A DNA stretch of 64,000 nt from Octopus vulgaris (Eukaryota), in assembly GCA_951406725.2 (NCBI GenBank), contig OX597823.1, positions 3,472,001 through 3,536,000 of the forward strand, written 5' to 3'. Below the pieces are notes generated by a model. It was given only the letters and a program-made list of their open reading frames with translations, did not search any database and was not told the DNA's origin. The stretch's first letter is position 1. Each line of letters opens with the position of its first letter. A program made the translations under genes and the position numbers. Shown here piece by piece: positions 7,949-64,000 of this stretch.

Positions 7949-9185
7949 GCCATTCCATAAACGTGGTTTTTTTCAATTGCATGAACTAAAAGTCGGAGGA
8001 TGGGATAAACTAGCTGCATCAACTTGCTATAAAAGCAGGTAGTAATTTTACCTTGTACTTATTCTTAGTGCAAGTTTTGAGGAGTGCAGTTCAATTTTAA
8101 CAGTTATTTTTCAAGGCTATAATGGAAGTGACAAAGGGGCATATTTGGTATATTTTGTTTTATTAGTTCAATAAAAGCAACAACGCAATGAAAAGTGCAA
8201 GGAATATTAATTCAGTATATGGGGATCGGACAATAAGCGTAAGCCAGTGTCAACAGTAGTTCCAGAAATTCCGAGCCGGAAACTACAGCCTAGAAGACAA
8301 GCCTCATCCTGGAAGATCTGTAGAGCTCAACAAGGACGTCCTGCAAAACCCTGGCGGAACAAAACCCCATCGTAGCTGTTGAGGAACTAGCAGAGAAGCT
8401 TAGATTTGGTCATTCAACCATTCATCAATGCATGCTATCGGAAAAGTCAGCAAATTGGGTCAATGGGTTCCTCACAAACTTTCCGTGTCTAATTGCACAC
8501 TGTCACTTCTCACGAATGAACTTTTTATGGACCCGAATAGTGATAAGAAATGGGTTCTCTATAAAAATGTCAAGTGACAAAGACAGTGGGTAGGGAAAGG
8601 AGAAACACCAGCACCCTAGGTTAAAGAAGGTCTTCACCTATGTACGGTGTTGTTATCTGTTTTGTGGGATATGAAAGGTTTAGTCCACTTTGAACCTTTA
8701 AACCCAAACCAAACGATAACAAAGGAGATCTACTGTGAGCAGCTTCATCAGCTTGAGTCCAGTGCTAGAAGAAAAACGACCATCTTTGCTTTCAAGATGA
8801 AAGGTGATCTTCCATCAGGATAATGCTCAGCCATATACAGTGAGGATGACATTCCAAAGGCTGGAGCAGTCTGAATGGGAAACCATGCCCCACCCACCAT
8901 ATTCACCAGATGCTGCTGCATCTGACTATCATTTATTCCCCAGTCTTCAAAATCAATTGGACGGAAAAAACATGAATTCTGTAGATGAGGTCAGAACAGT
9001 ACTGGAGGAGTATTTTTGTCACAGACAAGTGAATTTTGGAAGAGGGGGCCTGGCAAGTCTACCAGATAGATGGAAAAGCATTGTAGAAAATGAAAGAGCA
9101 TATTTTAGATTAAAAAAGAACTTTATCTTAATTTTGAAAAATAAAAGAAGTATAAAAAAGCTGTATTATTCATGGGAGGATCCAA
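7945..9185 (+). mobile_element. Decayed full-length mariner (DD34D) transposon
   Basis: Pseudo-ORF from ATG 8122 with stops and frameshifts: HTH region (ARNINSVYG..FQKFRAGNYSLED), WVPHKL, DKKWVLYKN, FHQDNA, HPPYSPDAAASDYHLF. Degenerate TIRs TTGGGCCATTCCATAA / TCATGGGAGGATCCAA. Abuts a (TA)n tract on the left; length ~1.24 kb. Confidence 0.9.
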
Positions 9186-9920
9186 TGCACATACATACAT
9201 GCACACATACATGTTCATCATTGCTACTTTATACTCTCACATGAAATGATATATCTTAAAATTGTCTCAGTTCAATCTGTAACAAGATATATCAAGGGCT
9301 AAGGCCTTCCGGAACTGAATTTACAGCACGTAACATGATAAATAACAACAATAACCGTCTGTAATTACACATTTAACCTGAAAGCTAATGGATACTGTCT
9401 GTTCTTGTTTAACATCTGAATATCAATTTACTAAATCCCATATATTAAACTAACATTTTTTTAATAATAAATTTTAGATCCATTACTTTTAATAAATCAA
9501 CATCATCATTTAACATGTCTAGTTGACTCTTTCATGCTGGCACGGGTCAGACAATTCAACAGGATCTGACAAGCTGGAGGCCAGTTGAGCTTCAATGTAT
9601 TTGGCATGATTTTAAGAGCTGGATGCCCTTCTTAATGCCAACCATTTTGCAGAATGTATCGAGTACATTTGTTCATAGCACTGGCACTAGTGAGGGACAC
9701 TACATAACCTACAAAACAAGACACCCTGATTGAGGCAGAGAGGTATCGAGCAAGGTGCCTTTATGCCACGTGTTGACAGGCATAGGTGTCTTTCTTTAGA
9801 GGAGATTACATGGCCACCCAAGGTGGATAAAGAGAAAAGAGATGGTGGTGATGAGGTGCCAGGATGTATCTTTAAGGTTCAAGGAAAAAGTGGAATATAA
9901 GAGATAATATGTGTATGCAT

Positions 9921-13302: not shown

Positions 13303-15553
13303 TTATAATCAAAATAAGCAACAAGGATATCCAAAGGTAGTGTGGTACAATCGTTTCGTGCTACTTCATTTAATTAAACAATGTAAGTATTACATCAGTT
13401 TTAAAATGTTGAGCAATGTTGGCAAATGGAATAATTATAAAAAATGAACATTGTCAATTTAATTTTTAAAATTCCATATAATAATAATAATTGTGTACAG
13501 TGCTCAGGTGCACTACAACTCATCTAAAGTCTATATATAATCAGGTGTAGTTTCGGCGGATTTCGGAAAGCATGAGGGCCTTAAAGGATGCAGTGTCATG
13601 GCAGTCAACAACTGACGCAGGCAGTTTATTCCATGCTTCAGCAACTCTGAGCGTGAAAAAATGTTTCCGAAAGTCATGGGAGCTGTGTTGTTTTCTGACT
13701 TTGTAGGCATGTCCACGTGTGTTAGACACATAGAGATCAAAAAGGTGTTCAGTGTTGTTGTTGGTGAGGTGGTTGATAACTTTGTGGGTGTTTACCAAGT
13801 CCGTCGCCAGACGCCAGAGCTTCAGTGAATCCATGCCCAGGGAAACAAGGCGCTCAGAATATGGTAGGTGTCTGATGGACGGTATGCGTTTGGTTGCACG
13901 TCTCTGGACAGATTCCAGGAGGTCAATGTTCTGAGCAAGATAGGGGTTCCAAACTGATGATGCGAATTCCAAGTGTGGTCGTACCATAGCTGTATACAGT
14001 TTTAAATAGATGGCTGGAGAGCGGCTAACAAAAGTCTTGCTGAGTGATGCCAAGACACCCTCGGCCTTCTTGACAATTTTAGAGATATGCTTTGTCCAAC
14101 GCAAATCACTGCTGACAGTGATGCCTAGGTCACGCTCGCAAGAGGATTTCTTGATATCAGTGTTGTGGAGGGAGTATGTGGACGCAGGGTTTTTCTCCCA
14201 AAATGCATGGTGGTACACTTGTCCACAGCCAGTTTCAGTTGCCAGTCTGTGATCCATTGTTGCATTGTGTCTAGGTCTGATTGCAGGAAAGAGTTGTAGA
14301 CATCAGGATCTGTCCTCTTGATTTCAAGGTACAGCTTGATGTCGTCTGCATATTTCAATACTGTGGCATTCTTTAAATTGGCATCTATGTCATTAATGTA
14401 TGCCACAAACAGGAGGGGACCAAGGACAGATCCCTGTGGTACACCCGATGACATCTCATATGGTGTAGAATGCTGTCCTAGAACTGTGACAACCTCCTTT
14501 TGGCTGAGAATGAAGGATTTCAACCAGTTAAAAAGGTCATCCCTCACACCCATTGCAGAGAGTTTCACCATAAGCCTTTTGTGTGGCACAGAGTTGAAAG
14601 CCTTAGCAAAGTCAAGGTAGACAACATCCACCCATGAGCCACTGTCAGTGATCTGAGTAATGTCCTCAAGGAACTCGACAAGCTGATCACTGCAGCTGAA
14701 GTTAGGGATAAATCCATATTGTGAGGGTCGGATGAGACTGTGAGAGCTCCAGAAGTTCCAGAGTGTTTCTCTGACACACGATTCCATCAGTTTTGCAATA
14801 CAGCTAGTGAGACTGACTGGGCGATAGTTGACAGGTGATGTGCGGTTGCCCTTTTTGAACAGAGGAATGACACTGGCAGTTTTCCACTGCTCCGGAGTAA
14901 CACCATTGTTGAGACAGTACTGGAAGAAAATAGAAAGCTGGTGTAAAAGGAAGTACCTGCCACGTTTGAGAAGCAGGTATGTAACTCCATCGAGACCAGG
15001 GGAGGTATAGTTGCGCTTACTTTGAAGGTGATGTCGCAGCATTGCAGGTGTAAATTCCATAGTTGTTATGGAATTTTCTGTTAGAGATGGTGAAGATGGT
15101 ACATTTTGACTTTCAACAGTGAATATGTTTGCATAGCACTCGGCAATGAGTTCTGCGCATTCCTTGGGGTCGTCAGTGATCTGGTTTGTGTGAGGGTTGC
15201 GAAGAGGGCCCACTGGAGAGTGAGGTCTCTGCTTCGAATGCACATATTTCCAGAAAACCTTGCTGTCAGGATTGGCTGCTATGCACTGTTCAAATTCAAG
15301 CACTGCTTTTTTTGTCACTTGCTTGAGATGGTTGGAAGATTTATTCCGCTTCTTCCTGTTGGTGTCTGATTTATGCAACTTGTATTCCTGTTCAGCAGTC
15401 CGACGTTCCTTCCTGGCAAGTCGGACCGCTGAAGAGTGGCTGAAGAGTGCTCTACATTTTAAAACTGGTGTAATACTTACATTGTTTAATTAAATGAAGT
15501 AGCATGAAACGATTGTAACACACTACCTTTGGATATCCTTGTTGCTTATTTTG

Positions 15554-21667: not shown

Positions 21668-24600
21668 TGTTGTCCCCTCTGTGTTTAGCCCCTTGTGGGT
21701 AGTAGAGAAATAACTCATCCACCTGAATGGAGTAAAGCAATGTGAAATAAAGTGTCTTGCTCAAGGACACAACATACCACTGGGAATCAAACCTACAACC
21801 ATGAGCCAAACACCTTAACCACTAAGCCATATGCCTTCACCCTACCACTCAAATGGGTTAAGCCAATGACTTATTTTATGAAGTCTGAATGGACGAAAAA
21901 CAGTAAAAAGAAAAAAAAAACTTTAGAAATCAAAAAGAAACTTCTTGACAAAAGGAAACAAAACAAAGAAAAAAAAAAGAAAAGGTATTTAGTCTGGCAC
22001 TGTGTAGGTGCCTGCCAACTGTCATCATGATATCATGACTTATTCTATATACACTTCCAATATAAGGTCAGGGCCTAAAGAACAAGCCCTCAAATATGAG
22101 GGTGAATACAACTGATTAATATTTGACAGATGCTGTATTTGATAAACTAAAACATGCGCAGGCATATTAGATGTGCCCCAATTTCAACAGCACCATATGA
22201 GGAAAAACTACTTTTAGTGAACTAAAGCATGTACTATTTAACGCTTTAGCATTTTAAACCAGCCATATCTGGCCAAAATAATCTGTTTTACCTTCAAACT
22301 GGCCAGATCCAGTCCCTCTACAATATTATTCTAAAAATAAACAATCACGTCACTGCAAACTCAACGCTTCAGGATAATGCAGGACAAATTCAAATCAATG
22401 TGAATAAATAAGCAAAGACCTGGGATGATTTATATTTGGTAAAAAATAGCTTGTACACCATCAAATATGAAGGTATATGATCCAGTGGTTAGGGTGTTGC
22501 ACTTGTGATCACTATATCATGAGTTCAATTCCTAGACCAGGCTGTGTGTTGTGTTCTTGAGCAAAATACTTCCGTTTCATGTTGCTCTAGTGGGTGAGAA
22601 AGTGGCGGAATTGTTGAAGCATCGGTAGAAATGCTTTATAGTATACCTTCTAGCTCTCTACATTCCAAGTTCAAATCCTACCTGAATAAATTGGCTAAAT
22701 GGCTGCTACACAAGGATGCTACGAATGGCCCTGAATGTGAAATGGCAGCAGCATGTGACAAATGAATGCCTTTATGGAGACCTGTCGAAAGTTAGCAAGA
22801 AAATCTGGCAAAAGACTGAATTTCATAGATGGAAAATGTATGGAAACTTCTGTGTGTGTGTACACACACACGTGTGTGTATCTGTCTGTCCCCAACGGTG
22901 CTTGATAACCAATGTTAGTTTGTTTACGGCCCTGTAACTTAGTGGTTCAGAAAAAGAGGCCAACAGAATACCAACCTTAAAATAAATACTGGGGTTGCTT
23001 TGTGTGACTAAACCATTGAAAGCATTGCCCCAGCACGGCCACAGGCCAAAAAATATAAAAGATAATTAAAATTACCCAGTGATATTAACAAATTAGTGCG
23101 TTATTTACTTTGACAGGACCTTTTGCATGGACTGACAGTACATAAAAACTTTCTTATTAATATCATTGATAGAGGAGAACCATCTGGCTTGGCCACGAGA
23201 ACTGCTGCAATCATGTGACTTTGCTCAGTTTTAAGCTCTTCAGTGACAGACACCTGGCAACATTCTGACAACCAAATCTCCTGTCAAAAATACACAGAAT
23301 ACCAGTGCCTGTTGAGGAACTGATGTTGCAAATAGCCACTAGTTTTGTGAATGAACACTGAAAGGCATATTAACTTAAGAGAAAGTAATTATAAAAAATT
23401 ATACCCTTCATGTAGCTCTGAGTTGATTAAAACTATCAGTGAAAGTCGACAGGTGGAGAGAGAGAGAGAGACACACACACACACACACAGATATATATGT
23501 GTGTATGTCAGGTGTAGCTTTCCAACATGGTTTTGAGTTCAATTGCACATCATGATGCCTTAGACAAGTGTCTTCTACTATAATAGTTTATAGTGTACAA
23601 TTTATGTACAGAGGCTGTGTGGTTGATGGCTTTTCAGAAATGCAAGTAGGCATGTAGTCACTACAATCAATGTGGAATGTTCACAACTATCATCATTATT
23701 TAAATATCCATCTTCCATTTTAGCATCTGAAGGTTTCAAGGATTACATCATGCTTGAAGATCTACTTCAGCATGGTTTCTAGAGATGTCCCTACTAACAC
23801 CAACCCCTTTACAGATTGTACTGCATACATATTTTTCCATGGCCCCAGCACTAGTGAGGCCACATTGTAGCTTGCAAGACAACGGTTCTCGAGGTACCTT
23901 TATATAGGAAGATGACAGGTTGAAGTACAATGGAAGGGGGCCCAGAACAGAACAGGTTTTTGCTGTAGGGGAGCTTCATAGATATTCACATTATAGAAGT
24001 GTGGGTGAGAGTAATTAGGGTAGAACCAGAAAAAAAAAAAGATAGAACAAGGGTTATGATGTGTCAAGGCAGATCCTCAAAGTACAAGAAGGTGAATAGT
24101 TGTAGGAACTGAAGAACAAGAAGTATGGATGAATAGAGGAGGCATAAACATGTACACTAACACATATCATTCTTCAGGCTACACTAAAAAATGCACTCCA
24201 GGACTGAAGTCTATGGGTTAACCATTAAGCAGAATAAGCATGTGCTTAGAGTATCAAGGGAAGAAGGGGGGGGCACCACAGAAATAGTAAATGGTTTACA
24301 GCACAAAAGAAATCACTTTAAACTTGCTAAAATAATATCCAAAGTGGTTTGTATTATTGCAAATATAATTTCAAAATGTCCATGATGTCATAGTGAAGAG
24401 TTTGCAATTCAAGAAAGCAGAAGAAAACTTTTCAAATTTGAATAAAGTGCAAGTAGATACAAAATAGACATTATTTTCCATCGAACTGTTTTGTCTTGTT
24501 TCATTTTGAAAAATAAACATTTATTTTATGGTTTATTATCTCTAATAATAATAAATGCCAAAACGAATGTGTGTGTGTGTGTGTGTGTGTGTCAGTGTTT

Positions 24601-46000: not shown

Positions 46001-46210
46001 TGGAGCAATGTGAAATAAATGTCTTGCTCAAGAACAAAATGCATCACCAGGAATTGAACTCATGACCTTACTACCATGAACCAAATACCTTAACCACTGA
46101 GCTACACACCTTCGTTCCTCAGTTCTATGGACAATGAATTCATTATTAGAGACAAAGTAGTTGAATCGTTAGCATATCAGAATAACTGCTGGGGCAGGAT
46201 GGCTTCTGCA

Positions 46211-46387
46211 GTTCTGTATTTAAGAGATGAGGAATTACGTACATTATTTACATTTGATGGCTATTTGTCCTCATCTTGTTTGTTGTTAACCACTACGCCA
46301 TATGCACATAGGCATATGGCGTAGTGGTTAAGAGTGCAGGCTACTAACCCCAAGATTCCAAGTTCGATTCCAGGCAGTGACTTGAAT

Positions 46388-46427
<40 letters not shown>

Positions 46428-46564
46428 TCAAAAAAACCCTTAGGAATGAGAACCCTGGTTCGAAATTTCCCCAGGACACCTGATGAAGGCTGGAGGGTAT
46501 ATCAGCCGAAACGTTGTGTTAACAACAAACAAGATGAGGACAAATATCCGTCAAATGTAAATAA
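46211..46564 (+). mobile_element. Solo non-autonomous Penelope-like terminal-repeat element with tRNA-like head, hammerhead and inverted arm
   Basis: 47-bp inverted repeat 46244-46290 / 46518-46564 (2 mismatches), with a ~33-nt extension on the left arm only. tRNA-like head 46311-46381 is shared with the sequence after the GIY-YIG ORF. (AAT)n at ~46389-46425. Confidence 0.8.
46475..46520 (+). ncRNA. Minimal type I hammerhead ribozyme (PLE type)
   Basis: GACAC-CUGAUGA-A-GGCUG(gaggguauau)CAGCC-GAAA-C-GUU^-GUGUU. Stem I is GACAC/GUGUU, both core boxes are intact, stem II has 5 bp, and stem III is the loopless palindrome AACGUU. Predicted cleavage is after 46515. Confidence 0.8.
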
Positions 46565-47022
46565 AGCATTGTTGCTGATTTTTTATATTCACTCCTACTG
46601 AGGTCCCCTTTTATTCTTCAAAAGGCATTAAAATAAAGTACCAGTCAAGTACTGGGGTCAATGTAATTGACTATCCCCTTTCCCACAAATTTCTGGCCCC
46701 TTGTGCCTAAATTAGAAACAGTCCTAGCAGGATCATTGGCATGGCAGGCAAAAGGCTTAGTGGTATCACTTCTAACTTTTTACTTTCTGAGTTCAAATTC
46801 CACGATGGTCAATTTCGGGGAGGGGGGAGGTAAGTTGACAACCCCCAACCACCCACGTTCAACTGACACTTATTTTATCAATTCTGAAAGGACGAAAAGC
46901 AAAATTGGACTCAGAACGTACCAGCAGACGAAACACCACTAAGGATGTCACCCGGTGTGCTAATGTTTCTGCCAGCTTGCCGCTTTAGGCTCAATATAAT
47001 AATCTTTTCTACTCTAGGCACA

Positions 47023-63427: not shown

Positions 63428-63887
63428 CTCTCTGAAAAGTTACAAAAGATATGCGGCCCATATGACATCAGGACGGTATTCAAGAGTAATACAACACTTC
63501 GCAAATATCTCCTTCGAGTAAAACCATCAATAGAAGAGAATATGACCAAGAACTGCTTGTATTCCATCCCATGCAGCTGTGGTAGGTTATACAAGGGTGA
63601 AACATGCTGTCCCCTCAAAATAAGGGTAGATGAACATCGCAAAGCTGTGACACGTGGAGATATTGATAAATCGGGTATAGCTGATCATGTATGGAAAACT
63701 GGAGACCACCTCCCCCTGTGGGATGAAGTTAAAAAAATAGACAGAGAACACCACTGGAAAATACGGAAACTAAAAGAAGCAGAACATATGCTAGGACACA
63801 ACAACCTCCTAAGTAGACCCAAGTGCAGATATGAGTAGCATATGGGAACCAGTATTAAGGAAGGATAGGAAAATATTAGATTTATAA
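63428..63887 (+). mobile_element. 5'-truncated Penelope-like retroelement: end of the linker plus GIY-YIG endonuclease
   Basis: ORF 63350-63838 contains LSEKLQKI...VFKSNTTLRKYL...CLYSIPCSCGRLYKGET..PLKIRVDEH...SGIADH...RKLKEA, the typical PLE GIY-YIG layout. A 1-nt frameshift after SRP restores SADMSSIWEPVLRKDRKILDL* (stop 63885-63887). The first ~25 codons of the track ORF look like unrelated flank. Confidence 0.9.
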
Positions 63888-63917
63888 GCCCTAAAATTCA
63901 CTCCATAATTGCCCACA

Positions 63918-64000
63918 GGCATATAGCTTAGTGGTTAAGAGTGCAGGTTACTAACCCCAAGATCCCGAGTTTGATTCCAGGCAGTGACCTGAGTAATAAT
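63918..64000 (+). promoter_or_regulatory. tRNA-derived Pol III-type head (A and B boxes) in the 3' region of the Penelope-like element
   Basis: TAGCTTAGTGG (A box) and GTTTGATTCC (degenerate B box). 68/75 nt are identical to 46311-46385, and the (AAT)n tract starts at the window edge as in that copy. Confidence 0.7.

Follow-up and report, generated by a model that had tools for sequence, protein, structure and literature searches.

The window examined here comprises 64,000 nt of Octopus vulgaris DNA (assembly GCA_951406725.2, contig OX597823.1, positions 3,472,001 to 3,536,000 of the forward strand). It contains a head-to-head insertion at 46208-46564, bearing the one-sided tail of Penelope elements, and the right arm of this insertion joins a tRNA-like head to a predicted hammerhead ribozyme. 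This arm belongs to a dead copy, now truncated, of an abundant Penelope-like element (PLE) that codes for protein. A preliminary description had placed an A box at 46317-46327, a B box at 46362-46371, an (AAT)n spacer after the B box and a hammerhead at 46475-46520, and had reported no run of four T residues (T4) before 46579. All of these were recovered on re-reading, the spacer occupying approximately 46386 to 46424, the ribozyme falling where described, and the first run of T4 or longer lying in flanking DNA. Two features had been overlooked: an inverted left arm spanning 46208-46305, and the ATG that opens the ORF at 46446, ahead of the hammerhead. The second head reported at 63918 is likewise present (68/75 nt, 91% identity), 30 nt past the family stop codon TAA at 63885-63887, and the hammerhead anticipated beyond base 64000 does follow it, but with its GAAA mutated (L031). 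The features are as follows:

46208..46243, minus strand: optional PLE tail of ~36 nt (L132 ext positions 1-36) at the second 3' end site, where the inverted left arm ends
46244..46290, minus strand: left arm, 3' part of the pseudo-LTR (pLTR; tail positions 94-140, 96%), beginning 2 nt past the predicted hammerhead cut
46286..46305, minus strand: short fold-back copy of head positions 2-21, overlapping the left arm by 5 nt at their junction
46303..46314, plus strand: decayed terminal palindrome, with the putative RNA start ~7 nt upstream of the head (46304)
46311..46385, plus strand: tRNA/SINE-like head with A box and B box
46386..46424, plus strand: (AAT)n spacer of variable length, which would be 5' UTR
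46446..46564, plus strand: first 39 codons of the PLE ORF (ATG at 46446), to the first 3' end site; the frame runs on into the N-terminus in long copies (e.g., L130, L124)
46475..46520, plus strand: minimal type I hammerhead within the ORF, predicted cut after 46515
46579..46584, plus strand: T6 run in flanking DNA outside the element
63428..63887, plus strand: GIY-YIG end of a second PLE copy of the same family, 5'-truncated and frameshifted
63881..63888, plus strand: TATA-like box that shares bases with the stop codon, lying 30 nt upstream of the putative start at 63911 and 43 nt upstream of the A box
63918..63992, plus strand: head of the second copy's 3' pLTR, with (AAT)n and the mutated hammerhead continuing past the window end

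No target duplication was detected flanking the window insertion, the longest shared word being 5 nt. Elsewhere in the window, a 22-nt match (95%) to the head start at 21814-21835 (minus strand), with no tail near it, may be a fragment or the A box of another SINE; a frameshifted non-LTR retrotransposon ORF with an RVT_1 match at 13541-15489 (minus strand) served as a T-run control; and a fragment at 8801-9244 (plus strand) resembles a Tc1/mariner transposase by eye, without a Pfam match.

The unit is almost certainly the pLTR of an EN+ PLE of the Penelope/Poseidon type. The order runs from the stop codon with its TATA-like box across 30 nt to the head, then through (AAT)n, the ATG, the hammerhead and a pair of 3' end sites into the rest of the ORF, which encodes RT and GIY-YIG domains in ~830 codons, a length estimated from pieces. 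A 569-aa open frame (L092) matched RVT_1 at E 2.7e-6, slightly short of the Pfam cut-off, and homologues carry RT and a few also PF01541; the endonuclease piece in the window gave no Pfam match, and its motif was read by eye. When the best 30 of 150 scored matches (4,613 candidates) were taken as endonuclease loci, the ORF was followed directly by the head in 28, and the remaining two retained the downstream part of the repeat. In the partial tandems (L241, L242, L249, L250) the same head precedes the ORF, and the pLTR includes the first codons of the ORF. The head is thus a built-in part of the terminal repeat, as had been proposed, and its presence behind the endonuclease in these 28 loci excludes a one-off SINE insertion. 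A single ORF with RT and C-terminal GIY-YIG is shared with the EN+ Penelope/Poseidon PLEs described to date (Poseidon_Ac, PMC11167929; Adineta Pen2a, PMC3846280; PMC4209133; PMC8557442), as are partial-tandem pLTRs, a minimal hammerhead overlapping the ORF start, a 5' palindrome and target duplications (PMC11167929; PMC3846280; PMC4209133; PMC8557442). An inverted 5'-truncated arm with an optional tail of 30-40 nt on one arm is also reported as common to EN+ PLEs (PMC8557442; PMC3846280). Assignment to the Penelope/Poseidon clade is suggested by this architecture, the tree having been built without a named Poseidon or Neptune reference.

The family was present in 17 of 120 fixed-position 10-kb stretches (1.2 Mb) of the 2.8-Gb genome, which extrapolates to ~40,000 insertions genome-wide (roughly 23,000-63,000). 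RT or endonuclease sequence was found in 2 of these 17 insertions and N-terminal sequence in 1, and no intact young copy was seen among the loci examined. The nearest relatives (P0001-P0007) share 53-68% identity. Neither metagenomes, searched for loci with P0003, nor viral contigs, searched with A1, returned a match, and a search of the genome collection gave 4 loci that were of little use. Head, tail and N-terminus occur under four organism labels, in contigs of four DNA-like runs whose depths were not read as copy numbers.

Within the hammerhead, stem I pairs 46475-46479 with 46516-46520, and the core CTGATGA (46480-46486), stem II (46488-46507) and GAAA (46508-46511) follow the minimal type I form as described (PMC4209133). 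Because long copies show that ATG 46446 opens the ORF, the ribozyme lies inside coding sequence, much as reported for the anole element (PMC11167929). The core pattern is intact in 98 of 172 copies, and stem II varies between 4 and 7 bp, with differing sequence, across 11 control loci. The core was not more conserved (0.927 versus 0.950), and unconstrained folding did not yield the full hammerhead fold.

The tRNA likeness of the head was evident in several comparisons. The combined A and B box score exceeded 40/40 shuffles in each of three family copies, and the heads of L225 and L088 scored z 4.6-7.8 against seven tRNA genes of the same genome, with 0/300 shuffles reaching the score in each case; the best tRNA match of the family heads was Arg (z about 7-8). 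A resident SINE head (L220) matches the family head slightly better than the tRNA genes do, at ~70% over 66 nt. With ARAGORN, neither the window nor any of 26 control loci yielded a tRNA; L286, a near-typical head, the unit and the window were scanned against Rfam with no match to a tRNA or hammerhead; and the head did not fold into a cloverleaf. Conservation was 0.956 for the A box, 0.966 for the B box and 0.949 for the sequence between them, such that the boxes stand barely above their neighbours; weak conservation is expected because the copies are dead, and it yields no support for transcription by Pol III. Processing of the head by RNase P was weighed and dismissed, since no acceptor stem forms in the fold or by eye. 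The same genome also harbors resident tRNA-SINE families (L220:3024-3300, L184, L172, L215 and L181:5570-5850) with heads resembling that of the element, and these are a possible donor lineage.

A comparable arrangement was encountered once more, in an intact tandem PLE from another source (L286; JGI1357J11328_10009043, 2440-2900) with 38% protein identity to the family. It has both boxes, preceded by TATAAG and followed by an AAT-like spacer and a hammerhead, and is the A/B-box case among 29 control endonuclease-hammerhead spacers. The distance from TATA to A box is 38 nt, versus 41-43 nt in the octopus family. Its tRNA likeness is weaker than the family's (z up to 4.6), and another control (L304) has a box score nearly as high, with poor boxes. 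T4 runs number 2 per 2,791 nt in L286, both close to the ORF start, the fewest among 12 control ORFs of at least 1,900 nt in a comparison that was made post hoc. In a FastTree tree, box-less L282 and L283 are nearer to the family than L286 is, which tentatively suggests that the L286 lineage captured its tRNA head separately. This element also shows strong avoidance of the TTT codon (TTT:TTC 8:17, versus 101:62 in other T/C pairs).

Copies of the octopus family tend to end close to the start of the head. Among 79 arm starts, from sets that were not chosen by ORF and that are search-biased, probably toward pairs, 51 lie at -8 to +4 relative to the head start, 8 farther upstream and 20 within the head. 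In the fixed-position 1.2-Mb sample, 5 of 6 clean arms that reach the head start stop at -8 to +1, the rearranged junction of L181 being omitted from this count. Short fold-backs on the terminal palindrome mark many of the junctions, and several junctions begin at the G at -7, 13 nt upstream of the A box. RNA-seq depth across the head start drops by 33%, 47% and 57% in three runs, compared with a range of -8% to +29% in the ~270 nt that follow; the most frequent 5' loose end is at -8 (297-369 reads). No start, end or cleavage peaks were present in these reads, which are unstranded and whose organism label may differ from that of the window; 69-74% of the reads run into unlike flanks, and the signal looked like that of old copies being transcribed passively.

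A TATA-like box lies 30 nt upstream of the putative start G. Type 2 Pol III genes have been described with a TATA box at -31/-24 (PMC7279448), and the position in the octopus element fits that of a type 2 Pol III promoter, yet it suits Pol II geometry equally well. The sense strand of the 2,632-nt majority state, counted without the AAT spacer, contains 13 T3 and 31 A4 runs and no T4 run, and the nulls for the 2,169-nt frame gave 3.3 and 2.6 expected T4 runs (P 0.021 and 0.050). Counted per copy, the rate is 0.38 T4 runs per kb, versus 4.0 per kb in 22 other long ORFs of the same genome. A mean of 3.5 per kb was obtained for 41 control ORFs from 79 related loci, at least four of which (L294, L323, L324, L345) are on long branches and may not represent the PLE frame; the 5 of these 41 that are free of T4 are all under 1,420 nt. 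Two controls without boxes, L325 and L324, are equally T4-depleted (P 0.005 each), low-T ORFs of the same genome often have few T4 runs, and the depletion in the family is considered modest.

Because the copies break off ~13 nt short of the A box, a TATA-like box is placed at -30, T4 runs are missing and a second family is similarly built, the head could be a promoter in use, with the element transcribed by Pol III and inserted by two-site internal priming. On these features of the sequence, we regard the chances that this is so as about even. Under such a model, RNA would start at the G ~13 nt upstream of the A box and, since T4 runs are missing, would continue through the ORF and the next repeat. 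The PLE protein would then prime reverse transcription at two internal sites near the ORF start, one for each end of the cut target; two internal priming sites have been demonstrated in vitro for the anole element (PMC11167929). Synthesis of cDNA from these sites to the 5' end of the RNA would generate solo arms of ~270 nt with no short RNA, the two cDNAs would fold back or join at the terminal palindrome, and ORF-bearing copies would arise when read-through RNA is primed in the repeat downstream. That such an uncapped RNA is translated is assumed. Counting against Pol III are boxes that barely exceed their neighbours in conservation, T4 depletion that also occurs without boxes and RNA-seq in which starts are missing. 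Pol III is also thought to be too weakly processive for autonomous elements (PMC10886601).

The same PLE anatomy could also be served by Pol II acting from the TATA box, with the head representing a captured SINE fragment in the 5' UTR whose boxes are unused or function only as a chromatin boundary. Such a reading accommodates the TATA-like box upstream of the pile-up of 5' ends, the lack of clear excess conservation of the boxes and the resemblance of the head to that of L220, and a capped RNA would be easily translated; further, TATA-like and initiator-like words were noted by eye ahead of the hammerhead in several control PLEs. Against it stand a start that sits where a type 2 Pol III promoter would place it, a sense strand devoid of T4 runs and a second family with similar spacing of TATA, A box and B box; transcription by Pol II is judged possible, though on balance doubtful.

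The preliminary description had instead taken the short copies to be a Pol III-driven SINE or retrozyme, self-transcribing and self-cleaving, that is re-mobilised in trans by the PLE protein. Short copies do outnumber ORF-bearing ones (14 of the 17 randomly sampled insertions lack ORF sequence past the tail), each solo copy contains the A and B boxes and no internal T4, and pLTR sequences are described as able to act in trans (PMC3846280). Moreover, 14 of 62 short arms begin no more than 8 nt after the predicted hammerhead cut, with none in the 5 nt before it, a pattern that hints at cleaved RNA as a template; the alternative is a 6-nt palindrome with which this pile-up coincides. Against a separate element, a comparison of 36 ORF-linked with 34 solo repeats, from which 24 solos originating in tail-selected searches had been dropped, revealed no solo-specific subfamily, as only 2 of 140 tail columns differed at P<0.03, neither of them diagnostic, and divergence was similar in solo and ORF-linked repeats (0.077 versus 0.087). 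The solos terminate at the two internal sites of the PLE, and they appear from these comparisons to be identical with the PLE's own repeat rather than a non-autonomous family amplifying apart from its partner. They also lack the upstream TATA-like box and the ORF sequence 3' of the end sites, and such downstream sequence is reported to be required by the anole protein (PMC11167929). Nor do the copies line up in the tandem arrangement by which retrozymes are defined. Most are inverted pairs, with a few headless direct repeats (e.g., L149), and whole units arrayed head to tail were seen neither in the loci examined nor in the 17 random insertions. No unit-length back-joint of the kind expected of circular RNA was found among the matches listed for the fragmented RNA-seq. 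Since internal priming on a full-length RNA would give exactly the solo unit, a separate short RNA would not be needed, and the independent SINE or retrozyme is regarded as improbable.

The inverted pairs carry further marks of PLE insertion. Of 69 outward-facing pairs, 61 have the tail on one arm but not the other (P about 1e-11), as does the window copy. Flank repeats of at least 8 nt accompany 31 of 65 pairs, compared with 3.5% after shuffling, although some of these are chance matches in AT-rich sequence. Paired arms have 46 variants in common, where 1,000 shuffles averaged 29 and reached 46 at most, a slight excess consistent with a common source. Palindromes at the 5' ends of pLTRs are general in PLEs, including those without a reported tRNA head (PMC3846280), and the pile-up could therefore be purely mechanical, with cDNAs joining or folding back at the palindrome, RNA starting upstream through host read-through and the repeat having no promoter of its own; this agrees with junctions centred on the palindrome and with RNA-seq reads that look like passive co-transcription, but it is very improbable, as arms with an unrelated partner or flank also start at -8 to +3 (L064, L072, L078, L084, L375, L410) and most copies pass hammerhead stem II (-8.1 kcal/mol), which is stronger than the hairpin at the head start (-5.4 kcal/mol).

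To return to transcription by Pol III, its widest form is offered tentatively, as a possible history rather than a probable one: PLEs would have captured a tRNA/SINE head at least twice and switched to Pol III, giving rise to an autonomous protein-coding element with a 2.7-kb Pol III mRNA that lacks T-run terminators, is translated cap-free and, by priming internally, scatters tens of thousands of promoter copies that resemble SINEs through the genome. To our knowledge, transcription of autonomous retrotransposons is ascribed to Pol II, or to Pol I by co-transcription, and Pol III normally serves short non-coding RNAs only. If the proposal is true, a natural Pol III-driven protein-coding element would put this limit of Pol III to the test and would offer a direct route from an autonomous element to SINE-like repeats. 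Some ~40,000 insertions with the appearance of SINEs are fragments of Penelope, a point of importance for repeat annotation, and the sharp 5' end and one-sided tail constitute an in vivo record that fits two-site priming of PLE insertion.

The preliminary description had also suggested, with reserve, that the combination of a tRNA head and a hammerhead was undescribed. This was mistaken: the schistosome elements Sm-alpha and Sj-alpha have a tRNA-derived head followed by a hammerhead and are reported to be transcribed by Pol III (PMC2770079; PMC6765202). These differ from the octopus unit in being non-coding, SINE-like and often tandem, and the accounts cited do not present them as the terminal repeat of a protein-coding element (PMC2770079; PMC6765202). 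The novelty lies in an A/B-box head that sits where an autonomous element has its promoter. The octopus family departs from EN+ PLEs in this head and in its lack of sense-strand T4 runs; the promoters described in the EN+ PLE accounts cited are of internal LINE-like or TATA/initiator types. In the TRIMp3 elements (Cassandra, Helenus, Ajax), a small-RNA-derived Pol III promoter, possibly captured from a SINE, likewise resides in the terminal repeat (PMC10886601). However, these are non-autonomous LTR elements of 0.3-1.3 kb whose autonomous partners are argued to need Pol II, and Pol III is taken to be limited to short passengers (PMC10886601). Animal non-LTR retrozymes share short hammerhead units related to PLE pLTRs (10.64898/2026.07.22.740005; PMC7761336), but they are described as head-to-tail arrays and without promoters (10.64898/2026.07.22.740005; PMC7761336). 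The octopus family, in contrast, occurs chiefly as inverted pairs and bears A and B boxes. Among the papers listed in literature searches, none describes a PLE with a tRNA-derived Pol III promoter in its title or the start of its abstract, and Repbase, Dfam, subscription journals or supplements may hold the family.

Two further observations concern the repeat and its relatives. The (AAT)n spacer within the repeat has expanded to 0.4-1.2 kb in some copies (L011, L029, L030, L049), so that the element seeds long AAT microsatellites. Additionally, fragments of other, distant PLE-like families occur in the same genome (L376:5552-6526 and 9364-9657; L209:3106-3507; L418:5143-5639; L097:742-1836, minus strand).
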